A program made the position numbers and the translations under genes. A stretch of DNA of 64,000 nucleotides from Candidatus Kaiserbacteria bacterium (lineage in GTDB: Bacteria; Patescibacteriota; Minisyncoccia; Phycocordibacterales; UBA918): positions 576,317 through 640,316 of the forward strand of contig CP064968.1 of the NCBI GenBank assembly GCA_016699245.1, read 5' to 3'. The notes beneath the pieces were generated by a model. It had not been told where the DNA came from and searched no databases. It saw only the letters and a list, made by a program, of their open reading frames with translations. Below are positions 5,905 to 45,299 of the stretch, in pieces. Each line of letters starts with the position of its first letter. Within the stretch, counting starts at the first letter, position 1.

Positions 5905-6579
5905 ATGCAACTAGATACTGAACTCCGTATTGAACAAAACAAGGTATTGCTCCCATTCATTACACTAAAAATAGGGAATAAAACAATTATCATAATAGGA
6001 ATGCTCCATGTTGCCTCGAGGGCGTATTTCGAAGTTGTTCTTTCTCGTCTCAATTCATATGAATCTGCTGGATTTAAAATATTGTATGAAGATATCGAGA
6101 GCGTACCATCTGCATCTCAAGAGAATCTTGATAATTTGCTTAAAGGTCTAGAAATGTATGGTCTATACAGCCAACTAAGCTTCATACAACCGAAAACATC
6201 ATGGGTGTCTGCTGATGTATCACCAGAAGAAATGGTAAAAAACTTTCCTCAAGTAGAAGACTATGCTGAGAATATGAAGAATCCAGAAAAATATTTACAG
6301 GAGATACTGCTACCAGAATTACGCGGTTCTGGACCTGAAATACCGAATATTGAATTTGTAATTAATACAAGAAACCAATCCGCGGTAAATGCGATTCTCA
6401 AACACATAGAGAATGGAAACGTTGCAACCTATTGGGGTTGTGCTCACATGCCAGGAATGATTCATTTACTTGAACAGTCATCATTTACCATCAAATCAAT
6501 TGAGTGGATTGAGGCAATTGATATAGAAAAAATCAGTACGGGATTTTGCACTCTTCGAAGCAGTGGGCATCGCGATTGA
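5905..6579 (+). CDS. Hypothetical protein (possibly TraB/GumN-like)
   Basis: An IIIIGMLHVAS motif resembles the TraB family GTAHV motif. The last ~11 codons lie inside the duplicated arsR 3'-end fragment, so the native C-terminus was probably altered by the insertion. Confidence 0.4.
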   Translation: MQLDTELRIEQNKVLLPFITLKIGNKTIIIIGMLHVASRAYFEVVLSRLNSYESAGFKILYEDIESVPSASQENLDNLLKGLEMYGLYSQLSFIQPKTSWVSADVSPEEMVKNFPQVEDYAENMKNPEKYLQEILLPELRGSGPEIPNIEFVINTRNQSAVNAILKHIENGNVATYWGCAHMPGMIHLLEQSSFTIKSIEWIEAIDIEKISTGFCTLRSSGHRD

Positions 6580-6667
6580 GGGTGTAGATTCGCTCGCGTC
6601 CTTCGTCGCGCACTGAAACGGAACCACTGATTTAAGCACGCTGAGATGATGCGTAATGTTGGGTTTA
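6547..6667 (-). pseudogene. Degenerate 121-bp duplicate of the arsR-family gene 3' end
   Basis: About 90% identical to 7428-7549. Translates as TITHHLSVLKSV, then loses frame through a 1-nt deletion. Confidence 0.7.
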
Positions 6668-6680
6668 CGAAACCCAACAT
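6656..6680. repeat. REP-like 25-bp palindrome (left end of the RAYT unit)
   Basis: atgttgggtttacgaaacccaacat is a perfect palindrome. Its reverse complement occurs at 7376-7400. Confidence 0.75.
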
Positions 6681-6686
6681 ATATAC

Positions 6687-7373
6687 TTGTGTAATATGGA
6701 ATTATTTCATGTTTTGAACAGAGGGGTTGATGGTCGTATTCTTTTTAAAGACTCTGGCGACTATGTTCGATTTATACACAATATGTATGAATTCAACGAC
6801 GCGAACCCAGCACCACAATCAAATCGACGCCCTGGTGATATTGCTGACATCACAATTAAAGAACGTGAGATTTTGGTTGATGTACATGCGTGGGTACTCA
6901 TGCATAATCATTATCATCTACTCCTCTCTGAGCATAGAGAAGGTGGTATCTCTCTTTTCATGCGAAAGCTTAATGTCGGATACGCAAATTATTTTAATGA
7001 ACGATACCAGAGAAGTGGCACCCTATTTCAGGGGCGAACAAAAAAGATTCATATCGAAACAGACGCCCATTTTTTATATATTCTCCACTACATACACCTC
7101 AACCCACTCGACTATCTTGAAGGAGCGCAAGAGTGGCGAGTGCGAGATGCTTCAAAAACTTCTGAAGTAGAATTCTCACAACTCCAGACACATCTTCATC
7201 AGTACAGGTGGAGTAGTTATCAAGATTACCTCGGTAAGAAAAACTTCCCTTCCATACTCACCACAACACTGTTTCAAGAAAAACTTGGGGATGTACAAAG
7301 GAGTACAGAGAAATATCTTCAGAGCATTTCAGACGCACAAACTGCCATGCTATCAAAACTTTTCCTCGAGTAA
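6687..7373 (+). CDS. IS200/IS605-like Y1 (HUH) transposase, REP-associated tyrosine transposase (RAYT) type
   Basis: HUH motif VLMHNHYHLLL and C-terminal catalytic Tyr region YRWSSYQDY. The gene is flanked at 6 nt and 3 nt by inverted 25-bp palindromes. Confidence 0.7.
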   Translation: MCNMELFHVLNRGVDGRILFKDSGDYVRFIHNMYEFNDANPAPQSNRRPGDIADITIKEREILVDVHAWVLMHNHYHLLLSEHREGGISLFMRKLNVGYANYFNERYQRSGTLFQGRTKKIHIETDAHFLYILHYIHLNPLDYLEGAQEWRVRDASKTSEVEFSQLQTHLHQYRWSSYQDYLGKKNFPSILTTTLFQEKLGDVQRSTEKYLQSISDAQTAMLSKLFLE

Positions 7374-7375
7374 TC

Positions 7376-7400
7376 ATGTTGGGTTTCGTAAACCCAACAT
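7376..7400. repeat. REP-like 25-bp palindrome (right end of the RAYT unit)
   Basis: atgttgggtttcgtaaacccaacat is the exact reverse complement of 6656-6680. Confidence 0.75.
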
Positions 7401-7416
7401 CCAACATTGAATAAAT

Positions 7417-7770
7417 TTAATACGGAATCTTGCACTCTTCGAAGCAGTGGGCGTCGCGGTTGAGGGTGTAGATTCGCTCGCGTCCTTCGTCACGTACCGA
7501 AACGGCACCTACTGATTTGAGTACATTGAGATGATGCGTAATGGTGGGTTGCTTGAGTCCTAAACGCTCGGTAAGTTTCCCTACCGTCTCCCCTTTTTTT
7601 GCTTTCCCGAGGAAACACACTAATTTATAACGGCTCTCCACACCCACTACCTTGAAGCAGTCGGGGCAGAGTTCCTGCTCGCTCACTACCGTTTTTCTCA
7701 CCCATGCTGGACGGGGGTACGTTCGTGTTTTCGAATGCGTGTCTTTTTGTGCTTTTTTTACTTTTTCCAC
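7417..7770 (-). CDS. ArsR/SmtB-family metalloregulator (HTH)
   Basis: ELCPDCFKV metal-binding-like motif followed by a winged HTH (LGLKQPTITHHLNVLKSVGAV). Divergent from nrdD. Confidence 0.65.
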   Translation of the reverse strand: MEKVKKAQKDTHSKTRTYPRPAWVRKTVVSEQELCPDCFKVVGVESRYKLVCFLGKAKKGETVGKLTERLGLKQPTITHHLNVLKSVGAVSVRDEGRERIYTLNRDAHCFEECKIPY

Positions 7771-12020: not shown

Positions 12021-12472
12021 ATACCCCATCAAACATCCCCGATGTCACCGCATGCGACAAGGGCACCTCGTGGCTCTATAACGATGTGGTAAAAGATCAC
12101 TTTCTTAATCCTCGTAATCTACTCATCGACGATATGACGTATGAGAGTGATGGCATTGGTATTGTTGGAAGTCCTGCCTGTGGTGACATGATGGTGGTCT
12201 GGATAAAGGTAGACGCTGAAACAAAGCGTATAACTGAATGTGTCTGGCGCACCTTTGGATGTGCGTCCGCTATTGCCTCCACATCGATGATGTCGGTCAT
12301 GGCAACGGAGAATGGTGGTATGACACTCAAGGAAGGAAAGCATCTCACTCCCGAAGCAATACTCGAGCGATTGGGCGGACTTCCCGACCGAAAGTATCAT
12401 TGCTCGGTACTCGGCCATCAAGCACTCCACGAAGCGATTCTTGATTATGAGTCATCACTCAATACAGATTGA
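12017..12472 (+). CDS. iscU: Fe-S cluster scaffold (IscU/NifU-like)
   Basis: Conserved Cys triad context GSPACGDMM...GCASAIASTS...HCSVL. It overlaps iscS by 4 nt. Confidence 0.8.
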   Translation: MNTPSNIPDVTACDKGTSWLYNDVVKDHFLNPRNLLIDDMTYESDGIGIVGSPACGDMMVVWIKVDAETKRITECVWRTFGCASAIASTSMMSVMATENGGMTLKEGKHLTPEAILERLGGLPDRKYHCSVLGHQALHEAILDYESSLNTD

Positions 12473-12489
12473 GCATAACAGGTCTTTAA

Positions 12490-12557
12490 TCTCAGCCGAC
12501 ATATCGTTTTTAAAAGGCGGGGGTAGGACTGGGTTTAAAAACGATATGTCGGCTGAG
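12490..12557 (+). terminator. Very long hairpin (about 25-bp stem, 18-nt loop) followed by a T-run, after iscU
   Basis: ctcagccgacatatcgtttttaaaa ... ttttaaaaacgatatgtcggctgag, then tttttcc. Confidence 0.5.
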
Positions 12558-12576
12558 GTTTTTCCAATAAACTCTA

Positions 12577-13290
12577 TTGATAGATATGCAAAATAACACC
12601 TGTAATTGGACTATTGTAGAAAAGAAGGAGGAGGCGCCGCTTGTTTCTACCCTCTTTCTTCGTGCCGAAAGTGAGCAACCCAACTTTATTGCAGGTCAAT
12701 ACCTCACCGTACAACTTCCTGGCTTCGAGCCCGCTGAGGGAAAGAGTTATAGCATCAGTAGTGCACCGCATGACCCACTCCTCACACTTACGATAAAAGA
12801 GATGGGTAATTTCTCGCGTGCCCTCCTTGCGCATGAAGTCGGCACCATCCTCACCACCTCCACCCCCTACGGCTTTTTCTATCCTGATGAGCCCCGCGCA
12901 CCACACCTCATTTTCATTGCTGGCGGTATCGGTATCACCCCCTGTATGAGTATGATTCGTTCTCTCCTCCACACCGCTCCAGACACACATATCACTCTCC
13001 TCTATAGCAATCGCACTGAGGCAGATATTATTTTCAAAGACACCCTCACTACACTCGCGTCCAACCACCCAACATTTTCCATACACCACTTTCTCACAAG
13101 AGAAGACATCGTCGAAACCGACACCCAGCACCGAGGACGCCTTACCGAAGCCAGTCTCGTCGAGTACACTAAAATCCCCGAAGCAGACTACTTTCTCTGT
13201 GGCTCCATGGACTTCACCAAGAGCCTATGGTCCCACCTCCGCACCCTCCACATCCCCTCCACCAAAATCTACACCGAAGGCTTTTTTTAG
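12577..13290 (+). CDS. FAD/NAD(P)-binding oxidoreductase (ferredoxin-NADP reductase-like)
   Basis: The RSYSISS FAD motif (RxYS) and the GGIGITP NAD-binding motif are present. Confidence 0.6.
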   Translation: MIDMQNNTCNWTIVEKKEEAPLVSTLFLRAESEQPNFIAGQYLTVQLPGFEPAEGKSYSISSAPHDPLLTLTIKEMGNFSRALLAHEVGTILTTSTPYGFFYPDEPRAPHLIFIAGGIGITPCMSMIRSLLHTAPDTHITLLYSNRTEADIIFKDTLTTLASNHPTFSIHHFLTREDIVETDTQHRGRLTEASLVEYTKIPEADYFLCGSMDFTKSLWSHLRTLHIPSTKIYTEGFF

Positions 13291-13312: not shown

Positions 13313-13347
13313 AAAAAACCCGACTCTGTGAAGAGTCGGGTTTTTGG
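13313..13347 (+). terminator. Rho-independent terminator
   Basis: aacccgactct gtga agagtcgggtt followed by ttttt. Confidence 0.6.
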
Positions 13348-13367: not shown

Positions 13368-13718
13368 TTAGAGCCAAATCATTTCTTCTGCCTTAGGCAG
13401 ACGAATTGCTCCTTCAAAGAATATGCTCCGTCCTGTTACTTGCCATTCACGAAGCTTCATTATGTATGCTTCTGCATAAATGTAAAAGTAATGGCGTTTC
13501 CCATTGAGATTTATATCGAACCGTGCAAGACGATTAACTCTGTACGCTACGATTTCGATACCATTACTCCATACTACCCGTTCGATCATTCCGCGAGTAG
13601 ACCTTGGCAATGCAAAAGCGAACTCGAGAACTGCGTTTGTAAAACCAGTAAACTCACACGACTCGCTCATTTTGAATAAGGGTACGAATTCTTGAAAGTG
13701 CAAAGAACGTGTTTCCAT
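13368..13718 (-). CDS. Hypothetical small protein
   Basis: 116-aa ORF with no recognised motif. A toxin-like fold is possible but unsupported. Confidence 0.35.
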   Translation of the reverse strand: METRSLHFQEFVPLFKMSESCEFTGFTNAVLEFAFALPRSTRGMIERVVWSNGIEIVAYRVNRLARFDINLNGKRHYFYIYAEAYIMKLREWQVTGRSIFFEGAIRLPKAEEMIWL

Positions 13719-13841
13719 TTCATCCTCCGGTCAACAGATTTAGCACAGCAGGGTCAACCCACTGTGGATACCACACCAAGTGGAACCGCGCGTACATTAT
13801 CATTAATCTATATACTGAGCAAATACTACTAGAAACGAGTC

Positions 13842-13911
13842 CTACTCAATAAACTCAATCTGAAAAGGGTACATGCCCATACCACAGTTACCTGTGAGGG
13901 GGCTTTTTTCA
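13842..13911 (-). repeat. Degenerate duplicate of the last ~22 codons plus stop of the gene at 15014-15415
   Basis: Reverse-strand translation ...GNCGMGMYPFQIEFIE* matches ...GSCGMGMYPFQIEFIE* at 15014-15083. No upstream ORF accompanies it. Confidence 0.75.
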
Positions 13912-13972
13912 CAAATCAAGGCCGGGCCTTGTACGAATGTACAAAGTCCGGCCTTGAACGAAGTTGTATTTA

Positions 13973-14941
13973 CTACCTGAGCATCTGGGTTACGAGTGCG
14001 ACCATCTGATCTTTCTTTTCAGGATCACTTTCTGCAATAAGAAGTGTGAGTGCGGTGAGTGCTGCGGGGTTTATCTGCGATGCGCCTCGTGCCCCTGCTT
14101 TTTTGAGGAGCCACACAAAGGCAAACGCTCCTGAGCGCTTGTTGCCATCTGAAAACGGATGATTCTTTATAACGAAGTAGAGGAGGTGTGCTGCCTTCTC
14201 TTCAAGAGTGGGATACACAGGCTTTCCACCAAATGACTGCATAACATTCCCCACAATTCCTTCGAGCGCTCCGCGACTACGTTCATTCGCAAAAAGTTCT
14301 GTCGCTTCCCCCTTTTTCATAAGTATTGTTTTGAGACTCTGAAGTGCAGTATCAAGGTCGCTCCCAAGAAGTGTTACTTTTTTCCGTGTGACACCTTTGG
14401 TAACAAGTGTTCCTTTATCATACGCATCGAGCGATACCCATGTGGTTGCAAACTCCTTAATAAGTTCAAGTACCGACTTTGGATCGAGGGTGACGTGCTC
14501 AGGAAGGAGTGCCTGCACATCCGCAACCGACTTCATAAAAGCATCGTAGTTCTTCCCTACTAACTTTTTGTTGATGGTGTATCCCTTCGTGATATGTTCA
14601 CGAAGCGTCTTCGTCGCCCACTGGCGAAAACGAATTGCGGTTACTGAATTTGTGCGATACCCCACCGCTAAAATAATATCGAGTGAATAAAGTGATATTG
14701 GTTTGTCAGAATTTGCAATGTGCATTTTTTGCACATTGCTTTTTTCCGCAATTTCATCACTCTTGAAAAGATTTCCGATGTGCTTTGTAATCACCGAACG
14801 CTCTACCCCAAACACATCAGCAATTTCTTGTTGCGTTGCCCATACCGTATCATGCCTGAAATCCCCCCGAAGTTTTACATCACCACTGGGACCTCTAAAC
14901 AATACAAGTTCAGTTTTATGCATTTCCTTTTTCATACACAC
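13973..14941 (-). CDS. Fic/DOC-family protein with an N-terminal RhuM-like domain
   Basis: Doc/Fic motif HPFSDGNKRSG near the C-terminus. The N-terminal half resembles the RhuM virulence-protein family. Confidence 0.7.
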   Translation of the reverse strand: MCMKKEMHKTELVLFRGPSGDVKLRGDFRHDTVWATQQEIADVFGVERSVITKHIGNLFKSDEIAEKSNVQKMHIANSDKPISLYSLDIILAVGYRTNSVTAIRFRQWATKTLREHITKGYTINKKLVGKNYDAFMKSVADVQALLPEHVTLDPKSVLELIKEFATTWVSLDAYDKGTLVTKGVTRKKVTLLGSDLDTALQSLKTILMKKGEATELFANERSRGALEGIVGNVMQSFGGKPVYPTLEEKAAHLLYFVIKNHPFSDGNKRSGAFAFVWLLKKAGARGASQINPAALTALTLLIAESDPEKKDQMVALVTQMLR

Positions 14942-15013
14942 AAGTATACATCTAACAATTTACAAAAGGTATGAGGATTCACTCTCTCCATCACCCTCAC
15001 GAGGGAGATATAA

Positions 15014-15415
15014 CTACTCAATAAACTCAATCTGAAAAGGGTACATGCCCATGCCGCAACTTCCTTCGAGGGGGCCTTTTTCATTCACACCTATATCAAT
15101 ATCGGTCGTACCTGATTGAGGAAGTATTTGCGACACGTCGCGGCTCGGGATACGTACTGATGCAGAGCAGTCAAAGGTGCCGGTAGTATTAAAACGCACA
15201 ATGGTTGGCACTCCCGCTTTTGCGGTGCTCACCTCGGGAAGGTAGCCGCCCTTTGCATCTATCATCACCACCTGTTTTTCTCCCTCCATAGTCACATTAC
15301 TGGTGATAGTTGTCGGTACCACTATTGATGTTTCGGTAGATTTTTCACGCAAGAAGAATGCGCCCATAATGATGAGCACACCTACCCCTACTGCAATGCC
15401 AAGATTTTTATTCAT
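15014..15415 (-). CDS. Secreted/membrane-anchored putative metal-binding (cupredoxin-like) protein
   Basis: N-terminal TM anchor and a C-terminal Cys/Met-rich tail CGMGMY. Co-directional with, and 5 nt from, the downstream permease. Confidence 0.45.
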   Translation of the reverse strand: MNKNLGIAVGVGVLIIMGAFFLREKSTETSIVVPTTITSNVTMEGEKQVVMIDAKGGYLPEVSTAKAGVPTIVRFNTTGTFDCSASVRIPSRDVSQILPQSGTTDIDIGVNEKGPLEGSCGMGMYPFQIEFIE

Positions 15416-15420
15416 ACACT

Positions 15421-16197
15421 CTAAAAATTAAAAACGGGGTTGATGAGTCCTATGATAACAAAACTATTGATGATATTGAGAAATGCAAATGCAAGCACAA
15501 TGAGCCCTGCAGTCTTGTAGAAAAGACTCGCATAGCGACTCTCTGCGAGCGATACCGAGCCCACACTCATGAGTGCAAGCATCGGAAGTGTTCCGAGCCC
15601 AAACACAAGCATGGTAAGTCCGCCCACTACAAATCCCCCTGTACTAAGTGTGTAGAGTTGCATTGACTGCGTAAATCCGCACGGCATAAAGAACGTAGCA
15701 ATACCCACAAGGAGGGGCGTTACACTCGTATCAAATGAAAGCGTACGCTCTACATGTGTATGAAAGACCCTCGGGAATGAGATGCGCATATGTTCAAAAA
15801 ACGGAATGCCAAGCAACTTACCTCCGAGGATGAGCATCACCATCCCAATGAGGAGATTAAGCACAAAGGTTGTCGTGGTGGTGAGCGTAAATACCTGTCC
15901 CAAAAGCCCAATCACACCACCAAGGATAAAGAAGGAGACGAGGCGCCCTACATGGAAATAGAATTGAGGAATGAGTCCTCCACCTGCACGAGCAAATGTT
16001 GCTGAAAGCGTAAGTACAATTCCTCCCACCACTGCCATACAAGTAGACAAAGAAGCAATAACCCCAATCATAAAAATCGCCCCATAGCCTATCTCTCCCC
16101 CACTGACGAGATGTACGAGCCCAAGAGATTGCAAAAATACAAACCCGCAAATGAGCGTCCCAGCAATGAGACTCGCCTGTATGTATTCTCGAAACAT
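15421..16197 (-). CDS. Multi-pass membrane permease (TauE/SafE- or CcdA-like)
   Basis: 258 aa with about 7-8 TM segments. Gly-rich helices are present, plus a PCG motif. Confidence 0.4.
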   Translation of the reverse strand: MFREYIQASLIAGTLICGFVFLQSLGLVHLVSGGEIGYGAIFMIGVIASLSTCMAVVGGIVLTLSATFARAGGGLIPQFYFHVGRLVSFFILGGVIGLLGQVFTLTTTTTFVLNLLIGMVMLILGGKLLGIPFFEHMRISFPRVFHTHVERTLSFDTSVTPLLVGIATFFMPCGFTQSMQLYTLSTGGFVVGGLTMLVFGLGTLPMLALMSVGSVSLAESRYASLFYKTAGLIVLAFAFLNIINSFVIIGLINPVFNF

Positions 16198-30216: not shown

Positions 30217-30304
30217 GTATTGATTCTACATAATTTTTCCTCAGGAAACTACTATTACGTGCTGGCCGTCTGGGACGATATGAGAACTTATGTAACCACC
30301 CATT

Positions 30305-31228
30305 TCATCGAGATTGTGTACCCAGACATGCACGGAGATCTGCTGTCTCTGTCCAGCCACATTGACCACTTGCTTGACGTTCGCACACTGCACTCTGATA
30401 GCAAGCGTATTCCTCCCTGAACTCACATGTTGATGCCATATCCGGTTGATCCGAGCAGAGCTGTGAGGAACAGCCACCGCGGTAACATGTATCTGAAGGG
30501 TTTGTCACGATAGGTGCATCTTGTTTTACTACATTAAAATTAAAACGGTATTCTGTCTCTTCGACATCTATTTTTGAATTTTTTGGAGGAGTAACGTTTG
30601 TCAGTGTTATGCTCATTCCCTCCGTTGTAAACTCTTGGCCAAGTTCTACTATACTCGTGCTTGTGCCGGTACGTGAGACCACTTGAATTTTGAGACGCAC
30701 CGTTCCAGCCTGAATACAGGTTACGTCAACAGGACAACGACTATCTTCTTCTATAGAAAGTGGAAGGATAGATATTGATGTAAAGGTACCAAGTTCTCCC
30801 AATCTAAGACCAGTATCTGTATCTGGCGATACGGAAGGAATCTGAGGAATTTCCTCAGCAGACTCACATGTCTCCAAGTCAATAAAATCTACCGCGCTGG
30901 AGTTTCCTCGTTTGTATTCTCCTAGCAACGTAATTGTCCTATCATTTTTCAAGTAATAGCACTTCGCATCCAATATACCCGGCACCCCGCTTCCTCGCTG
31001 TATAAATCCAAAATACCAACCATCTCGACTTTGTTTAGACTCTATAGAACTCGGGGGCAAATCAGTAGTCTGATATACAGCTAATTGAGGATATTGTACG
31101 AGTATTGCATCGAGCGCTTCCTTTTCTCCGAGTACGCTTGTAGGCTGAGAATCAGGCTGTATGAACATCTTTACCAAAAGTATGATTAGTAAAACTAAGA
31201 TAAAGGTGGCGAGTATTTTTGTTTTCAT
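30305..31228 (-). CDS. Secreted protein with a Cys-rich C-terminal domain
   Basis: Signal/TM N-terminus. The C-terminal 60 aa contain 10 Cys. Confidence 0.5.
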   Translation of the reverse strand: MKTKILATFILVLLIILLVKMFIQPDSQPTSVLGEKEALDAILVQYPQLAVYQTTDLPPSSIESKQSRDGWYFGFIQRGSGVPGILDAKCYYLKNDRTITLLGEYKRGNSSAVDFIDLETCESAEEIPQIPSVSPDTDTGLRLGELGTFTSISILPLSIEEDSRCPVDVTCIQAGTVRLKIQVVSRTGTSTSIVELGQEFTTEGMSITLTNVTPPKNSKIDVEETEYRFNFNVVKQDAPIVTNPSDTCYRGGCSSQLCSDQPDMASTCEFREEYACYQSAVCERQASGQCGWTETADLRACLGTQSR

Positions 31229-31467
31229 ACCTTAGTATACATTTTTATTGACTGTCTGGGTGGGTTAGCTCCGAAGGTCTGACCCTTATCGCTGTCAAAG
31301 CCATTTGCTAGCCATCTGGGACGATATTTGAACGTATTTAGCACTCTCAACGTAAGTATGAACTTGGGTCTGAAAAGTTCGACTATCTGGAGAATTTAAA
31401 ATCCTATATAAAATAGAATAAGATAAGTGGAAATGTGGTCAGTGAACCGACCCTATTTCTTGTAGAC

Positions 31468-32193
31468 TTAGATGGTGGCTCCACTGGGGAGATTCATTTC
31501 AGATTTGTACTTCTCGATAACTTCAGGATGTTTGCCTTCTTTGCATTCTGCGACAAATGTATTCGCTTCTGCGCTGTCGGGGAATGTCATATAGGAAAGG
31601 GCTCCTTCGCATATGACGTCCGCGTTTAATTTTCCAGAAACATGAGTCTGCCCATTAAATGCTTTAAGCGCGTTGGATTCTACAATACGCTCTGCTTCCT
31701 CATATCCCTCATGGTAATCAAAGTTCCAGCGCGGAGGAAGCGCGAATACGTAAAGATTATTTCTTCCTAGTTCAGTTGCGAGTATAGGAGCAGCTGATAC
31801 AGAAAAATCTTCAGCGATGTATGAATCCCATTGAGCCAAGGTGAAAACCATGACAGGAATATCTTCATACGGAAGTGTTGCGGTCCACTTTGGATTTCGG
31901 ATCAAAAGTGTAACCCCTGTTTGTGTACTTTCCGTGGACGTTAAGGGATTCCCTTCCCACGTGTTTTCTACAATGGAATATCCTTCCCAGTTTTGAGGGA
32001 GTGAAAAGGTAAATCCGAAGTCAGTATTGCTATATACGATAGAGGTGCTCGAAGCAGTGGGTTCCTGTACCGGCACTGTTACTTTATTTTTGTCACGAAG
32101 AGAATATCCTACTATTCCTAATACCATCAGACTTACGACGACGAGTAGTATAGAGATTATTTTGTTGCTTTTCATGTCTAAAGTGTACCACAA
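31468..32193 (-). CDS. Secreted hypothetical protein
   Basis: N-terminal TM/signal. No recognised motif. Confidence 0.5.
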   Translation of the reverse strand: MWYTLDMKSNKIISILLVVVSLMVLGIVGYSLRDKNKVTVPVQEPTASSTSIVYSNTDFGFTFSLPQNWEGYSIVENTWEGNPLTSTESTQTGVTLLIRNPKWTATLPYEDIPVMVFTLAQWDSYIAEDFSVSAAPILATELGRNNLYVFALPPRWNFDYHEGYEEAERIVESNALKAFNGQTHVSGKLNADVICEGALSYMTFPDSAEANTFVAECKEGKHPEVIEKYKSEMNLPSGATI

Positions 32194-32462
32194 AAAACAA
32201 TATCATTTTAGTTGTGTCAAGGCTGCGGGCCATCTGGGACGATGTTCGAACTTTTGTATTTAATGAATCTACTGTATAGTCACACTTGAGTGCTTGGATT
32301 ACCAATCTCTATGTCCGGTGTCGACAACAGGTTGAGAGCACAAGTAAACCTGCTGCCCACAGCCACGACAAACGACGGCCGTAACTATAACGGTCATCTG
32401 GTGTCCAAGCACTCACCCGCCACCTTTAATGGTGGCTTTTTCTTTCATAAAACGAGCTGGCC

Positions 32463-33038
32463 TTATGGGAGGATGTTAGAACCATCCTTCTCTAGAAAAT
32501 CTTTAATCTGCAGATTAGTCATTGGCGCTGATATTTTTCCAGAAAGATACTTTATCGTAACCACATGATGCTCCTCATCCCATGAATTGATACAATCCAA
32601 AGCAAGGATCACCTCGTAATCTCTCTGATATGCATCTATTACTGCCATTCTGACGCATGCATGCGTATTGATCCCTGATATGATGAGTGTATCTATTCCA
32701 AGCGCCTGAAGCATCTCATCAAGGTTAGTTTTATAGAACGGACTATACCTCCTTTTAATAATTTCTAAATCGTACGTCTGATGGTCAAGACCATCCAAAA
32801 GCTTGCTCCCTTCAGTTCCAGCAACAACAAATCTCTTACCTAATTTGCGATCGCCTATGAAGGCATCACTTCCATCAGGTTTCATTTCCTGCCTGACCCA
32901 AATGATCGGTACGCCATGCTCCCGTATTATTCCAGACAGAATATTTATCTTTGGAACTAAATCACTTTGAATTGCATTAAGTTCTACTGACTCAAAAAAA
33001 TCCTTTTGAAGATCAATGATGAGTAAAGCTGGTTTCAT
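32463..33038 (-). CDS. Isochorismatase-family cysteine hydrolase
   Basis: ALLIIDLQKDF (the catalytic Asp region), and a GINTHACV region containing the catalytic Cys. Confidence 0.7.
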   Translation of the reverse strand: MKPALLIIDLQKDFFESVELNAIQSDLVPKINILSGIIREHGVPIIWVRQEMKPDGSDAFIGDRKLGKRFVVAGTEGSKLLDGLDHQTYDLEIIKRRYSPFYKTNLDEMLQALGIDTLIISGINTHACVRMAVIDAYQRDYEVILALDCINSWDEEHHVVTIKYLSGKISAPMTNLQIKDFLEKDGSNILP

Positions 33039-33179
33039 ATTGCGTTAAGTGTATCAAAGTTCAAAAGTAAAACTCTTGATCTAATTCAACCTCAAATAAG
33101 GCTGGATGACGTGCTGGCCATCTGGGACGATGTTCGAACTTTTTTACAAACTAATCATTTCGTATACTATAATTAAGAA

Positions 33180-33977
33180 ATGAAAACTTGGCTGATTGGA
33201 AGCGACTTGGATGGAACACTGATCTATCCAGATAATTCTCCTGAAGTAAATCTGGGTACAAAAGCTTTTAACTTAATAATCCAAAAGCATAGAGAATCAC
33301 ATACTTTAGCCTACGTAACTGGCCGTCACCTTGAAAGAGCTAAAGAAGGAGTAAAAGAAGCTGGTCTTATTGAGCCAGATTTTTATATCTGTGATGTCGG
33401 AACCACTATCTATGAACAAAATGTCTTAACTGGAGCTTTTTCTCTTGACCAAGTTTATAGGGATCAACTTACAAAATCTTGGCAAGAAACCACAAAAGAC
33501 AAATTGATTGATTGGCTACAAAATTTTCCTTTCCTTACCCTACAAGAAGATAATAGACAGGGTGAATTTAAACTGTGTTACTACGTTTCTTCCGACATTG
33601 AGCGTGAATCATTTGAAAATTCTGTTATTAAACAGATAACAGAGGAATTTAAACTTCAAGCGATATACAGCACTGACCCAAATAATAATATTGGCTACTT
33701 AGATATCCTTCCTAAAGGAGCATCTAAAGAATCTGCATTAAACTTTCTAGCTCAAAAGACTAATATTTCTAAAGATAGAATTGTCTATGCTGGAGACAGT
33801 GGTAACGACTTAGCTGTCTGCAAAGCGGGAATAAAATTTATCATTCCTCAAAAAGCCAGTGAGGAAGTTAATTCTTTTTTCTTATCACCAGAAAATTCTA
33901 GTTGTATTTATTATAAGGTTACAGAGCCCTTTTGCTTTGGTTTACTTGAAGGACTCCGTTACTTTAAAGTCTTTTAG
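33180..33977 (+). CDS. HAD-IIB family hydrolase (sucrose-phosphatase / Cof-like)
   Basis: DLDGTL motif I, and motif III/IV YAGDSGNDLAV. A TTTACA-17 nt-ACTATAAT promoter-like sequence lies between motif copy 4 and the ATG. Confidence 0.7.
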   Translation: MKTWLIGSDLDGTLIYPDNSPEVNLGTKAFNLIIQKHRESHTLAYVTGRHLERAKEGVKEAGLIEPDFYICDVGTTIYEQNVLTGAFSLDQVYRDQLTKSWQETTKDKLIDWLQNFPFLTLQEDNRQGEFKLCYYVSSDIERESFENSVIKQITEEFKLQAIYSTDPNNNIGYLDILPKGASKESALNFLAQKTNISKDRIVYAGDSGNDLAVCKAGIKFIIPQKASEEVNSFFLSPENSSCIYYKVTEPFCFGLLEGLRYFKVF

Positions 33978-34196
33978 AAAATCTATAGTTGTATTGCTGG
34001 CCGTCTGGGACGATGTTAGAACTTTTTATACAACAAAAAAGTAAATATTTGCAAAATGCGTTACAATTAAAACTATATGGGCAGAAAAAAGAATGTAACT
34101 TGCACATCGGTATTCTAGGTATGCGGATTTCTCTTTTTTTTATATGCGAAATTTTGGTCCACCTCACTATCAATCCAGTCATGGGCAGAAGTCTCA

Positions 34197-34472
34197 ATGC
34201 CAATAACAGCTTATCTGTCGAGTACTGTTGTTATAGCGATGATGCTTTGGTTTGCTATGCAAAGAAGTAATAGTGTATGGCAAAAGACTGTATGGATACT
34301 TTTCGTAGCATTAATCATCGGTGGAGTTGGAAGCTATGTATGGAGAGGCAACACACTAGTAAATCAGTGCACATCACAAGGTGGAATACTTGACCAGCAA
34401 AATAAAGTTACTTCTTTTAATTTCAAATGCGAGCAAGTTGGCACAAATAAAATATTGCCTCTTGTGAATTAA
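34197..34472 (+). CDS. Small membrane protein
   Basis: 91 aa with two TM helices. Confidence 0.4.
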   Translation: MPITAYLSSTVVIAMMLWFAMQRSNSVWQKTVWILFVALIIGGVGSYVWRGNTLVNQCTSQGGILDQQNKVTSFNFKCEQVGTNKILPLVN

Positions 34473-34527
34473 TATTATGTTAGAAGACTAAAAAGCGATT
34501 GCTGGCCGTCTGGGACGATGTGAGAAC

Positions 34528-35004
34528 TTATTTAACAAGTTCAAGAGCGACTGATGCATAGCGATATACATCATCACGTAAACGTTCATCGTTTGTATGC
34601 ATTTGATTTAATTCTTCTTTTGTTACCCAAACACACTGAGCATTTTTACTTGCCTCCTCTTGGGGTTTTATTTCACGACTATTCGACTTTGCAAAAAAAA
34701 TAAAGGAGGAATGGTCGTGGTGCTCGTTAATTGAATGTCTATTAACAAAGATCGGTGGTACCAAATCTTTATTGATGTCAAAGTCTTGTTTGGTCCACGT
34801 ACTTGGTCCGATCAATTCGACTTTCAAACCAACCTCCTCCCAAACTTCTCGAAGTACTGCCTCATTAATATCTTCTCCTGGATCCACATGACCACCTGGA
34901 GCAATCCAGAAATTATATTTTTCGTGTAAACGTAAAAGCACGGCTTTGTCGTTCACGATATACGCATCAGTACAAAGATCGACATAATAATTTAAATGAG
35001 CCAT
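34528..35004 (-). CDS. NUDIX hydrolase
   Basis: Nudix box GGHVDPGEDINEAVLREVWEEVGL. Confidence 0.75.
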   Translation of the reverse strand: MAHLNYYVDLCTDAYIVNDKAVLLRLHEKYNFWIAPGGHVDPGEDINEAVLREVWEEVGLKVELIGPSTWTKQDFDINKDLVPPIFVNRHSINEHHDHSSFIFFAKSNSREIKPQEEASKNAQCVWVTKEELNQMHTNDERLRDDVYRYASVALELVK

Positions 35005-44640: not shown

Positions 44641-44714
44641 TGGCTGCCGATCAGGGACTCGAACCCCAATGACTTCCTCCAGAGGGAAGCATCCTACCAT
44701 TAGATGAATCGGCA
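44641..44714 (-). tRNA. tRNA-Gln (anticodon CTG), CCA encoded
   Basis: Manual cloverleaf: U1-A72 acceptor pair with G73, as in bacterial tRNA-Gln. Anticodon loop CTCTGGA. T-loop TTCGAGT. Confidence 0.7.
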
Positions 44715-44719
44715 ATGTG

Positions 44720-45224
44720 ATATGTGCGTTTGTACAAGGTTCTCGTTTGGACTCGATTCCTACAGAATCTGTTCAGGTTGTCGATACTTTATTTCGCATG
44801 CACTCATAAATTATCTGGCAACCTTCTTGAAAAGTCTCCCAGACTTTTCAAGCCCCAATGACTTCCTCCAGAGGGAAGCATCCTACCATTAGATGAATCG
44901 GCAATGTTTGTTTTGTACTTTGTTTGTTCTCGTTTGGACTCGATCATTACATGATCAGTACACGTTGTCGATATTTTTACAAAATATCTGGCAACGTCCT
45001 GAAATGATACCCCATATCATTTCAGCCCCAATGACTTTCTCCCGGGGGAAGAATCCCACCATTAGATGAATCGGCAATATTTTGTACGTCGCCCAGATTA
45101 CTTTTTTTGGGATGCGTGTGTGCATCGTCTGTTTTTCTTCCGTGGGGAAGAAAAACAGACGGGCTCAGAAATTATAATTGCTTCGCTCTTTAATTTCTGG
45201 CCACCATTAGATGAATCGGCAATG
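44720..45224 (-). repeat. Two and a half tandem ~180-bp units, each ending in a copy of the 5' ~55 nt of tRNA-Gln
   Basis: Fragments at 44853-44906 (near exact), 45026-45078 (diverged) and 45201-45224 (short). The spacers share blocks ttctcgtttggactcgat...gttgtcgata...atctggcaac. Confidence 0.7.
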
Positions 45225-45299
45225 TGTATTGCTTTGGAACTCCCAAATCAATAGCGTCTGAATTCTAACAGATTTTTCAATTTTTGCTATACTTTTATC

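Follow-up and report, generated by a model that had tools for sequence, protein, structure and literature searches.

The position directly 3' of the stop codon of a cupredoxin-like gene is a hotspot of accessory gene content with its edge at that stop codon, and in the stretch of DNA analysed here (the window, 64,000 nt of a Candidatus Kaiserbacteria genome) it holds two tandem cassettes split by a remnant of the cupredoxin gene end. On balance, this arrangement is best read as the scar of one-sided homologous recombination at the hotspot. The same core genes flank the site in close relatives and enclose varied content that includes defence systems, which places it among the core-gene-flanked defence hotspots.

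Organization of the locus

The features of the locus are as follows (window coordinates, strand, description):

12577..13290, plus strand, FAD/NAD-binding oxidoreductase gene (Pfam), conserved right flank of the hotspot
13314..13345, no strand assigned, perfect 14-bp terminator-like hairpin between the convergent ORF116 and oxidoreductase genes
13368..13718, minus strand, ORF116, the gene of the second hotspot cassette, without a match in Pfam, NCBIfam or PADLOC
13719..13841, minus strand, spacer S2, orthologous by alignment to the cupredoxin-ORF119 spacer of L002
13842..13911, minus strand, orphan repeat copy R2, remnant of the cupredoxin 3' end abutting S2 and ORF116
13916..13957, minus strand, hairpin of 18 bp with one mismatch (dG -30.3 kcal/mol, z = -7.3), followed by TTTG on the Fic strand
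13973..14935, minus strand, Fic/Doc-RhuM gene, 320 aa from the ATG at 14935 (alternative start GTG at 14941, 322 aa)
14942..15013, minus strand, spacer S1 upstream of Fic, which goes along with Fic and is common to the window, L001 and L182/L183 (alignment and blastn)
15014..15083, minus strand, intact repeat copy R1, last 22 codons plus stop (+1 nt) of the cupredoxin gene
15014..15415, minus strand, cupredoxin-like gene, 133 aa, Pfam PF13473 (Cupredoxin_1), its stop codon forming the left edge of the variable region
15421..16197, minus strand, DsbD_2-type permease gene (Pfam PF13386, E = 2e-28), conserved left flank of the hotspot

The permease and cupredoxin genes form an operon and are found together in all 80 related loci; the cupredoxin orthologs of L001, L002 and L181-L189 are 81-91% identical. 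The oxidoreductase gene bounds the variable region in L001, L003 and L182 as well. The ORFs examined near the insert comprise the permease, cupredoxin and oxidoreductase genes and three without a Pfam match, with no integrase among them. The sole homolog of ORF116 lies at the same position in L002 (39% aa identity), and a search of the protein database returned none but ORF116 itself.

The repeat pair

An earlier sequence-only reading of this DNA had placed a 70-bp repeat of the cupredoxin 3' end on the far side of the Fic gene. The direct repeat (13842-13911 and 15014-15083) is confirmed as 70 nt, gap-free and 62/70 identical, and its outer limit coincides exactly with the stop codon. R1 encodes the conserved GPLEGSCGMGMYPF motif. 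R2 keeps the reading frame without an indel (EKSPLTGNCGMGMYPFQIEFIE vs EKGPLEGSCGMGMYPFQIEFIE, each followed by a stop) and has no ORF attached to it; it reads SPLTGN at a place where all orthologs read GPLEGS, and its description as a degenerate orphan is borne out by these changes at residues invariant among all cupredoxin orthologs. The same reading had named dispersal of the 70-mer as a finding that would speak against an insertion, and this is not the case, the 39-nt identical core occurring in the 64-kb window at these two copies only (0 expected by chance).

The repeat is a mosaic: no difference occurs in the 39 nt next to the stop codon, the 8 differences all falling in the other 31 nt (p = 8e-4). 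Compared with either R1 or L181, R2 matches at 39/39 positions of the stop-proximal part and at 23/31 of the remainder, and a donor search matched the variable 31 nt of R2 to no relative's cupredoxin end (18-23/31). The 39-mer is not conserved, with 31-32/39 matches in L001, L002 and L003, and in identical form it precedes three unrelated cassettes (those behind window R1, window R2 and the cupredoxin gene of L181). Between the window and L181 the last ~48 nt of the cupredoxin gene are identical, with 55/369 sites differing elsewhere in the gene (p = 0.0026). A diversity-generating retroelement was rejected as the source of the variation: the 8 differences between R1 and R2 include transitions and transversions, are not confined to the adenines of either copy, and no reverse-transcriptase ORF lies nearby. 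The variant bases of R2 give rise to a small hairpin with a T-run that falls short of significance (z = -1.6), and terminator prediction gave no call at this place.

The Fic/Doc-RhuM gene and its hairpin

The 1102 nt between R1 and R2 contain, as the earlier reading had it, one ORF and one hairpin with an 18-bp stem as the only cargo. The encoded protein matches the Pfam families Virulence_RhuM (PF13310) and Fic (PF02661), the latter at residues 200-279 with 46 bits against a cut-off of 24, and shows weak matches to the solved Doc protein 9vzc and to DOC_P1. Its translation contains the motif HPFSDGNKR, which fits the Doc-type active-site motif HxFx(D/N)(A/G)NKR. The match to the PADLOC profile PDC-S23 is full-length (E = 7e-101; residues 5-319 on profile positions 1-323 of 327), and the N-terminal part also matches PDC-S05; the earlier assignment of the Fic gene to defence or toxin cargo is thereby upheld, and the gene product is a candidate single-gene phage-defence protein, PDC-S23. 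Of the two families, it is the related PDC-S05 for which activity has been published: one of its representatives lowered the plating of phages T7 and T5 on E. coli about 1000-fold (PMC12881386).

The search for an antitoxin or other partner of Fic, as suggested in the earlier reading, came out negative. No Phd-type antitoxin precedes the Fic gene directly, there being no ORF in the 72 nt after the cupredoxin stop codon, and a RhuM domain is fused to the N-terminus of the protein in place of a separate upstream antitoxin. ORF116 was rejected as a partner, because it is absent from L001 and occurs in L002 without Fic.

The protein itself is a mosaic with respect to L001, being ~45% identical over aa 1-107 and ~96% identical over aa 108-320; the N-terminal part is 83-93% identical to that of L182/L183. 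Synonymous divergence between the window and L001 in the C-terminal part (0.88) is the same as that of the flanking genes, so the Fic gene is old. Recent hopping of the gene was rejected, as identical Fic proteins (P0111 on 24 contigs, and P0044) occur in one context or in one defence island only. A phage vehicle was rejected as well, with one partial match to a viral contig and only distant matches among phage records. Literature searches on RhuM/Fic in Patescibacteria returned nothing on insertion.

The hairpin at 13916-13957 is most likely the terminator of the Fic gene. It stands 4 nt from R2 and forms the sole non-native joint of the locus. Within the window its arm sequence matches its own two arms only; it is absent 3' of Fic in L001 and is not conserved across other Fic loci, and no known RNA family was found at the locus in Rfam. 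The ends of the insert (13912 and 15013) are not joined by an inverted repeat, and the insert encodes neither a recombinase nor a transposase. Among about 100 Fic loci no conserved termini were detected, similarity stopping at the ORF ends. A transposon or IS with target-site duplication was therefore rejected, lacking transposase, terminal inverted repeats, conserved termini and a characteristic duplication length. An integron attC site was rejected on a reading of the sequence: the hairpin ends (GTTCAAGG ... CCTTGATT) do not fit GTTRRRY/RYYYAAC, and no IntI lies nearby.

The same site in related genomes

At least 7 different contents follow the cupredoxin stop codon across relatives:

Window and L001, Fic
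L182/L183 and L188/L189, truncated RhuM gene and ORFs
L181, PemK toxin
L184, ORF of at least 197 aa
L002/L187, ORF119
L003, membrane proteins
L186, Cas12a-Cas4-Cas1-Cas2

The edge is sharpest between L186 and L187, which are 99.66% identical as far as the stop codon and unrelated beyond it (Cas12a locus vs ORF119). L002 displays the uninterrupted arrangement that the earlier reading had predicted, namely the cupredoxin gene, a spacer orthologous to S2 and a homolog of ORF116, without Fic; in this metagenome-assembled genome a Fic homolog is located on another contig. L001 and L182 carry S1 and Fic directly after the cupredoxin gene, without an orphan. Each half of the window locus is thus native elsewhere, R2 with S2 and ORF116 in L002, and R1 with S1 and Fic in L001 and L182, and the only novel joint, that between hairpin and orphan, is found in the window alone. 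The uninterrupted site of L002 agrees with Fic as the later insert; as L001 and L182 carry spacer and Fic without an orphan, ORF116 may equally be the later arrival.

The presence of Fic does not follow a tree. In core genes L184 (89% nt) and L181 (88%) come closest to the window, and both are without Fic, which more distant relatives have. Similarity of the flanks among relatives is itself mosaic and gives only a weak signal for the direction of the event: L184 is the closest sequence over the first 350 nt of the permease gene, but not in the cupredoxin gene. None of the other fetched hotspot loci contains a cupredoxin-end orphan, so additive outcomes are rare.

Bracketed inserts at other loci

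Further gene-end duplications around single genes, which the earlier reading had proposed to look for, are present in the window and in other Patescibacteria. In the window they concern an ArsR-like gene and a Y1 transposase, the RAYT (REP-associated tyrosine transposase) locus of the earlier reading, to which the Fic locus had been likened, and the likeness holds: the gene-end-duplicate architecture occurs at the Y1 locus in two independent assemblies (window and L001). The features of this second locus are:

6537..6665, minus strand, orphan copy of the ArsR 3' end, 89% identical, 1-nt deletion
6656..7400, plus strand, IS200-like Y1 transposase region, ORF 6687-7373 between inverted hairpins 6656-6680 and 7376-7400
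7417..7770, minus strand, ArsR-family regulator gene, its 3' 130 nt (7421-7550) forming the intact repeat copy

The transposase ORF matches Y1_Tnp of Pfam (26.2 bits vs cut-off 23) and scores 37.8 against a cut-off of 80 for the NCBIfam REP_Tyr_transpos equivalog, and the inverted hairpins are the only two copies within the 64 kb. The ArsR orphan overlaps the 3' end of the convergent gene 5905-6579 and, by about 10 nt of microhomology, a hairpin arm. The joints of the Y1 locus show microhomology in both genomes (AAACCCAACAT vs CAACCCACCAT in the window, AACATGTATACACCC vs AACGTGTCTACACCC in L001). No microhomology is evident at the joint between Fic hairpin and orphan or in the 5'-end cases.

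In other Patescibacteria, similar brackets surround other Fic genes and one ORFan. At other Fic loci the repeats on either side are pieces of genes that are specific to each locus and unrelated to one another. They range from 22 to 139 nt and, at the upper extreme, to whole genes and 1.7 kb, and duplicate the 5' end of a gene no less often than its 3' end; in several bracketed loci the insert amounts to about 1.0-1.1 kb. In 6/7 clean cases the repeat has its outer limit at a stop codon (+0 to 3 nt) or at a start codon, and for the three 3' boundary cases random staggered cuts would yield this with a probability of about 6e-5. For other bracketed genes no empty sites were found in the fetched loci. 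Fic is over-represented as cargo in tight brackets (7/76 vs 27/1182, p = 0.003, 80 loci having been fetched for containing Fic), which could hint at something Fic-specific. A mechanism dependent on hairpins was rejected, since orphans abut hairpins in the 3'-end cases (window, L055 and Y1 loci) yet the 5'-end cases are hairpin-free; the hairpins beside 3'-end orphans resemble terminators that belong to the cargo gene itself.

A comparison of orphan with intact copies at six loci gave 31 synonymous and 28 nonsynonymous changes, with a pN/pS of 0.25, at which neutrality is rejected (p = 2e-7), as is an in-situ duplication with a neutral orphan (p about 0.002). As the differences are mainly synonymous at six loci, the two copies would stem from different lineages, and since a pure two-lineage model is rejected too (p = 5e-4), later decay must be added. 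The substitution pattern therefore suggests donor and recipient versions that diverged under purifying selection, with later decay superimposed, as the origin of copies of the R1/R2 type. In L055 and L134 the copies are 98-100% identical.

Origin of the arrangement

The favoured reading, one-sided homologous recombination, builds on observed facts: the repeat, the hotspot with its edge at the stop codon, the orthology of each half of the locus to a different relative, copies that bear the mark of two lineages, and a lack of element hallmarks. Related Kaiserbacteria/Paceibacteria lineages differ in the accessory or defence cassette placed between the cupredoxin stop codon and the convergent oxidoreductase gene, and homologous recombination anchored in the conserved flanking genes would exchange these cassettes. 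Cassette one comprises S1, the Fic/Doc-RhuM gene (PDC-S23) and the probable terminator hairpin, and cassette two S2 and ORF116; the 70-nt orphan would derive from a cupredoxin gene end that was, or that accompanied, the left homology arm of one of the two. DNA from a diverged relative would have recombined homologously at one end, with an illegitimate joint at the other that links the hairpin to position -70 of the cupredoxin gene. We infer from the sequence comparisons both the route, either homology-facilitated illegitimate recombination or, equivalently, Campbell-type insertion-duplication, and the direction, i.e. which cassette came second. The cupredoxin gene would be intact because only such products survive selection, and not because gene ends are targeted, and repeat boundaries at codon ends would be expected because donor and recipient arrangements diverge there. 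The 39/39 identity beside 8/31 differences needs an extra step (gene conversion, hitch-hiking or clustered mutation), and we infer a later homogenisation or hitch-hiking of the 39-nt part. Both homology-facilitated illegitimate recombination (PMC3240628) and transformation-driven duplications (PMC3784515) are documented processes.

Alternative explanations

The earlier reading had suggested a shared insertion mechanism that targets gene ends, and this was not sustained: recombinase, inverted ends and conserved termini are lacking, 5' ends are duplicated as often as 3' ends, identical Fic proteins are never found in two contexts, and the site is a general hotspot (PemK, RhuM, ORFans, CRISPR-Cas12a). 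A specific form of such a mechanism would be an integrative cassette that circularises with one cupredoxin 3'-end copy and replaces the gene end by means of a recombinase encoded elsewhere, with the 39-nt identical block as core site and phage 21 and e14 at icd as the model. Repeats that equal the 3' end of the target gene and stop exactly at its stop codon would suit this att-like mimic, as would the 39-mer ahead of three unrelated cassettes, the bias of copy differences to synonymous sites known from element-borne mimics, and the common architecture of the Y1-transposase locus. It appears unlikely nonetheless, given that no integrase is encoded in the insert or the neighbouring ORFs examined, that conserved termini are missing, that identical Fic proteins never occur at a second site and that only 31-32 of the 39 positions are kept in L001, L002 and L003; moreover, the duplications at other loci vary in sequence, length (22 nt to 1.7 kb) and gene end involved, so there is no common attachment site. 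A prophage or integrative island might instead have entered the cupredoxin 3' end by its integrase, with Fic/Doc as maintenance toxin, and later have lost all but Fic and two att copies. Fic/Doc genes are classic maintenance cargo of prophages and plasmids, full-length homologs of the Fic protein are found on many plasmids and in few phage records, and some sources name homologs 'prophage maintenance system killer protein'. We regard this origin as very improbable: deletions would have had to spare both repeats and one gene repeatedly, in several loci with inserts of ~1.0-1.1 kb, in L001 and L182 the gene is followed at once by S1 and Fic, without further traces of an element, and just one viral contig has a partial homolog. 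A bolder proposal is that the last 40-70 nt of a conserved gene (by analogy also the tRNA-Met 3' end, 60771-61158) might act as a reusable, integrase-free attachment site. Patescibacteria would add defence cassettes of one gene each at such a site, one behind the other, and every addition would leave behind a copy of the gene end; the result would be akin to an integron array, run by host recombination or by factors acting in trans, and its preferred cargo would be Fic/RhuM (PDC-S23) and Y1-transposase genes. This we hold to be quite improbable.

Duplication in situ would have foreign DNA with Fic enter an ancestral cupredoxin-S2-ORF116 arrangement through a staggered break or replication template switching, duplicating 70 nt of the target as a long target-site duplication whose orphan copy decayed, and L001 would have deleted orphan and ORF116. 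Some IS elements (IS1634, IS1549) are known to generate long duplications of variable length, three-taxon parsimony permits one gain and one loss, the age of Fic agrees with its C-terminal divergence from L001 (0.88, as in the flanking genes), and the nearly identical copies of L055 and L134 resemble fresh duplications. Set against this are the pN/pS of 0.25 where at least 0.5 is expected (p about 0.002), the chance of about 1e-6 that a neutral orphan as old as the split of window and L001 keeps 39/39 identity, the start- and stop-codon boundaries in 6/7 cases, which random staggered cuts leave unexplained, and the want of Fic in the nearest core-gene relatives, and the explanation is rather unlikely. 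An assembly chimera, in which co-existing strains with a Fic allele and an ORF116 allele were joined into an apparent tandem, draws on the facts that both alleles exist in related lineages and that strain-level variation of alleles at the site is real. It is extremely improbable, as the orphan is no copy of a functional allele (SPLTGN vs GPLEGS), the joint lies at an arbitrary intragenic position with no shared sequence to mislead an assembler, the Y1 locus has the same architecture in two independent assemblies, and the source contig spans 1.05 Mb.

Comparison with known systems

Defence and accessory hotspots flanked by core genes (flexible genomic islets) have been described in the pan-genomes of E. 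coli and Pseudomonas. The window locus resembles them in its fixed position, conserved flanks and strain-variable content rich in defence and toxin genes (Fic/PDC-S23, RhuM, PemK, Cas12a CRISPR), and in being without hallmarks of mobile elements, with exchange attributable to homologous recombination in the flanks. It differs in that the host is a member of the Patescibacteria with a genome of ~1 Mb, most cassettes consist of one gene, the left edge lies exactly at a stop codon, and a gene-end remnant is retained between two stacked cassettes.

In Campbell-type insertion-duplication a circle with a homologous fragment is inserted by a single crossover, which is used for insertion-duplication mutagenesis. 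It likewise places the insert between direct repeats, leaves the gene intact if the fragment includes the gene end, and allows the repeats to recombine later and delete the insert; unlike that case, no circular intermediate is known at the window locus. Competent cells import DNA as linear single strands. Homology-facilitated illegitimate recombination, with one homologous anchor and one illegitimate joint, is known from naturally transformable bacteria and from conjugation in E. coli (PMC3240628). It shares with the present case one homologous and one novel junction (with microhomology at the Y1 locus), foreign DNA beside a conserved gene, and donor and recipient versions of the anchor whose differences are largely synonymous. 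In laboratory events recipient DNA is usually lost; at the window locus the gene end of donor or recipient would have been kept as an orphan, and the Fic joint is without visible microhomology. Transformation-induced duplications in pneumococcus span 100-900 kb between IS copies (PMC3784515), compared with 70 nt at the window locus.

The window insert shares with integron cassettes small size, often a single gene, poverty in promoters, tandem order at one site and a hairpin-forming sequence with which each cassette ends; it differs by the absence of attC core sites or their usual imperfect pairing and of a nearby IntI, and by separators that are copies of host gene ends. Phage 21 and e14 integrate into the 3' end of icd, and islands target tRNA genes. 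There too the element side rebuilds the 3' end of the target gene, the displaced orphan lies at the far junction and the differences are mostly silent. Those elements are large, carry their own integrase beside the attachment site and use one specific site; in contrast, the window insert is one gene without an integrase, and the duplicated sequence differs at every locus. Among RhuM-domain proteins of PADLOC, the window Fic protein matches PDC-S23 over its full length and PDC-S05 N-terminally, and the published work on PDC-S05 (PMC12881386) concerns defence activity, with nothing on gene insertion.

Implications

The locus most likely marks a site where related strains swap defence genes by ordinary recombination, and not a new kind of mobile element; no new class of such elements is revealed by it. 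That the hotspot holds a Cas12a CRISPR locus or PemK in sister strains supports a defence role of the PDC-S23 Fic/Doc-RhuM gene with its hyper-variable N-terminal domain. If the favoured reading of one-sided recombination is true, the locus would be a clear natural example of how the very small, integrase-poor genomes of Patescibacteria gain and stack single defence genes, by a route anchored in the end of a conserved gene that leaves a dated scar. Gene-end orphans could then serve as markers of exchange hotspots and allow additive and replacement events to be counted in metagenome-assembled genomes.

Organization of the Fic locus

The window derives from Candidatus Kaiserbacteria (Patescibacteria), and the Fic protein of this host is recorded from a 1,054,716-bp contig. 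The Fic/Doc-RhuM gene lies between two copies of the 3' end of the preceding cupredoxin-like gene, in the following order.

Features of the cupredoxin-Fic region of the window, in the direction of transcription of the Fic gene
16197-15421, minus: DsbD_2 permease gene
15415-15014, minus: cupredoxin-like gene, next after the permease gene
72 nt: spacer S1, between the cupredoxin-like and Fic/Doc-RhuM genes
14935-13973, minus: Fic/Doc-RhuM gene
13957-13916, minus: hairpin 3' of the Fic/Doc-RhuM gene
13911-13842, minus: orphan 70-nt copy of the cupredoxin 3' end (R2)
123 nt: spacer S2, from the orphan to ORF116
13718-13368, minus: ORF116
between ORF116 and the oxidoreductase gene: terminator-like hairpin
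12577-13290, plus: convergent oxidoreductase gene

The 70-nt duplication noticed in the sequence-only reading was confirmed: the intact copy (R1) and R2 are identical at 62/70 nt without gaps, the edge of the repeat is exactly the stop codon, and no ORF is attached to the orphan. The 39-nt identical core of the repeat occurs only at these two places in the 64-kb window (0 expected by chance). The hairpin 3' of Fic is very stable (dG -30.3 kcal/mol, z = -7.3) and is probably a terminator. The likeness to the Y1-transposase ('RAYT') locus of the window also stands; there, the 3' 130 nt of an ArsR gene are repeated around the Y1 transposase gene, which has inverted hairpins on both flanks. Within about 18 nt of R2 (13882-13904) lie six base changes specific to the orphan, which on the plus strand give rise to a CACAG/CTGTG stem and, after it, a longer T-run; this fold is statistically non-significant.

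Related loci

The closest species representative (L001, about 80% nt identity) carries cupredoxin-S1-Fic followed directly by the oxidoreductase gene, with hairpin, orphan and ORF116 all absent. The uninterrupted arrangement suggested earlier was found in the related locus L002, where the permease and cupredoxin genes are followed by a 147-nt spacer, the ortholog of S2, and by ORF119, the ORF116 homolog; the MAG of L002 has a Fic homolog (74% identical) on a different contig. Closer relatives were retrieved via a cupredoxin protein search. The cupredoxin stop codon is followed by a PemK toxin gene in L181 (cupredoxin 91% aa), by an unrelated ORF in L184 (89% nt) and by RhuM genes in L188 and L189, while L182 and L183 have a truncated RhuM gene and small ORFs between the stop codon and the oxidoreductase gene. 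L186 encodes the same cupredoxin protein as L002, and a complete Cas12a-Cas4-Cas1-Cas2 locus comes after the gene. As far as the stop codon (TAG vs TAA) it shares 99.66% nt identity with L187 (= L002), and it has no relation to it beyond; the stretches compared are L186 6661-12402, which carries the Cas12a locus, and L187 6403-6909, which carries ORF119. Since such unlike contents follow the cupredoxin stop codon in related loci, the site is a hotspot for defence and accessory genes, with the stop codon as its left edge and the oxidoreductase gene as its right edge. The distribution of Fic is not tree-like, as the gene is absent from the relatives nearest in core genes.

The Fic/Doc-RhuM cargo

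In the Fic ORF, an N-terminal domain of RhuM type precedes a Fic domain that carries the Doc-type motif HPFSDGNKR. The whole protein matches the PADLOC phage-defence candidate PDC-S23 (E = 7e-101), and its N-terminal half matches PDC-S05, a representative of which protects E. coli against T7, T5 and T4 (PMC12881386). Plasmids from many phyla commonly carry full-length homologs, and phage records rarely do. A search for the cognate antitoxin proposed earlier revealed no Phd-like partner at the window locus, and ORF116 was rejected in this role because it is absent from L001 and its homolog in L002 has no adjacent Fic gene. The gene is a domain mosaic (copies compared: window 13973-14935, L001 11278-12258, L182 1768-2319, L183 1094-1342). 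In the N-terminal ~107 aa, identity is 45% with L001 and 83-93% with L182 and L183; in the C-terminal Doc part it is 96% with L001. Synonymous divergence between the window and L001 is 0.88 in the C-terminal part, equal to that of the flanking genes (0.85-1.8), and divergence is extreme in the first 110 codons (dN 0.54). L182 retains the N-terminal part alone, followed by unrelated ORFs. The mosaic suggests that a putative specificity domain has been shuffled or has been under diversifying selection.

Recurrence of bracketing repeats

Direct repeats with one copy per side were found at 14/75 metagenome Fic-homolog loci and at 3/51 sham positions (p = 0.03); under a tight criterion, 7/76 Fic genes were bracketed versus 27 of 1182 other ORFs (p = 0.003). 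The repeats differ by locus and are pieces of neighbouring genes.

Bracketing repeats that copy the 5' end of the downstream gene
L097: TspO-like gene, 87 nt
L157: HsdR-like gene, 43 nt
L134: gene for a Rossmann protein, 45 nt

Other bracketing repeats copy a promoter or RBS region, or consist of complete paralogous genes, as in L089 (4203-8668; = L161), where the Fic homolog lies between full-length paralogs of 574 and 565 aa. This site is within a purine-biosynthesis gene cluster, the same context being present in 24/24 contigs read with the exact protein. The freshest example of the architecture, L055, is unrelated to Fic: the 58-nt 3' end of gene 12342-12968, with its stop codon plus 3 nt (12914-12971), recurs 100% identical (14174-14231) beyond a single 338-aa ORFan that has its own terminator hairpins. 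In an unbiased survey of 1.94 Mb, repeats with an edge no more than 4 nt from a gene end were found only at the window Fic and Y1-transposase loci, L055, L097 and L157; L134 and the Y1-transposase locus of L001 were added on visual inspection. In 6/7 clean cases the outer boundary is a stop or start codon.

Other repeats of the window

The tRNA-Met gene (61084-61158, minus) is followed immediately by a 155-nt unit in 2.1 perfect tandem copies (60771-61158). Each unit starts with GTCGACGG, and its last 23 nt repeat those of the tRNA 3' end, so that a small insert is followed by a copy of the gene 3' end, as at the other loci; the unit ends could form acceptor-stem-like pairing. The tRNA-Gln gene (44641-44714, minus) is preceded by about three partial and degenerate copies of its 5' two-thirds (44641-45240). 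They are spaced at about 175-190 nt, and behind each comes an insert about 110 nt long. The motif GGTTGCCAG...CGACAACCTG is common to these inserts and the tRNA-Met-associated units. Between tRNA-Asp and tRNA-Met there is a LAGLIDADG-type ORF (59988-60665, minus), with an 84-nt direct repeat (59571-59654 and 59720-59802, 98.8% identical) close by. A 140-nt match to 23S rRNA positions 46-180 at 59186-59325 is borderline (52.9 bits vs 50) and was missing from a second scan. Intergenic direct repeats of 32-39 nt occur in 30260-34538 (at about 30260, 31306, 32224, 33112, 33995 and 34500), between unrelated genes for an isochorismatase, a sucrose-6F-phosphate phosphohydrolase-like HAD hydrolase and products of unknown function. 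Paralogous genes form a 1.28-kb direct duplication (40002-41284 and 42915-44197, 76% identity). The region 63071-63271 is of low complexity with long G and C homopolymer runs, and large imperfect palindromes are close by (62920-63013).

Origin of the repeats

Orphan and intact copies, pooled over six pairs, show 31 synonymous and 28 nonsynonymous differences (pN/pS 0.25), a ratio that rejects neutral divergence (p = 2e-7). The counts also reject a pure two-lineage model (p = 5e-4), and later decay was therefore added; the ArsR orphan has a frameshift, and the cupredoxin orphan reads SPLTGN where GPLEGS is invariant. On these substitution patterns, the two copies would represent different lineages with later decay on top. 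The cupredoxin repeat is itself a mosaic, 39/39 identical beside 23/31 (p = 8e-4). The 39-mer also ends the cupredoxin gene of L181, which elsewhere differs from the window at 15% of sites (p = 0.0026) and is followed by a third, unrelated cassette; the 39-mer may have been homogenised later or have hitch-hiked. At the Y1-transposase locus the orphan homology extends into the hairpin arm, a microhomology, and the joints are at unlike positions (130 nt from the stop codon in the window, 61 nt in L001).

Both halves of the window locus are native in other lineages, R1-S1-Fic in L001 and L182 and R2-S2-ORF116 in L002, leaving the hairpin-orphan joint as the sole novel one. The simplest and most likely account is one-sided recombination between two lineages with different hotspot cassettes, in which one end would arise by homologous recombination and the other by illegitimate joining. 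The event is read as homology-facilitated illegitimate recombination (PMC3240628), for which Campbell-type insertion-duplication (compare PMC3784515) is an equivalent name. We infer both its route and its direction. A fragment carrying the cupredoxin 3' part, S1, Fic and the hairpin may have recombined homologously on the left and joined illegitimately at position -70 of a resident cupredoxin-S2-ORF116 chromosome. Alternatively, the incoming fragment may have begun with the cupredoxin 3' 70 nt, extended through S2 and ORF116 into the oxidoreductase gene and recombined homologously on the right, with the illegitimate joint behind the hairpin of a chromosome of the Fic type. The two directions are equally parsimonious, and the flank mosaic gives only a weak hint of an incoming Fic fragment. 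One-sided recombination would explain the codon-exact outer boundary, because donor and recipient arrangements diverge there, and it covers the variable repeat length and the 5'-end as well as 3'-end cases. It would likewise account for the synonymous bias, the microhomology and the missing hallmarks of a mobile element; the neighbouring gene stays intact since gene-destroying products are lost.

In-situ duplication of a long target would be parsimonious and fits the near-identical repeats of L055 and L134. However, with a neutrally decaying orphan it predicts a pN/pS of at least 0.5, which is rejected at about p = 0.002; it also fails on the boundaries, and the 39/39 identity is at odds with the age of Fic. 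Site-specific integration in trans through a mimic of the gene end, as for phage 21 and e14 at icd, agrees with the codon-exact repeat and the shared 39-mer, but integrase, common site and conserved ends are all missing. Neither a recombinase nor inverted ends were found in the Fic insert, and comparison of the window Fic region with about 100 non-syntenic Fic loci revealed no conserved termini: nucleotide similarity stops at the ORF ends, and neither S1 nor the hairpin is conserved. The nearest Fic homologs occupy at least four different contexts, and no identical Fic proteins were found in two contexts. That the window locus is a decayed larger element, or an assembly chimera, is unlikely; an integron-like gene end acting as a reusable attachment site is quite improbable. 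The shared insertion mechanism targeting gene ends that the sequence-only reading had proposed was not upheld, and the best reading of the feature is a recombination scar within a defence-gene hotspot. Under one-sided recombination, precise deletion of Fic via the 39-nt perfect repeats is predicted to be possible. The scar is a known kind of genome dynamics, with an unusually clear anatomy in a Patescibacteria genome.
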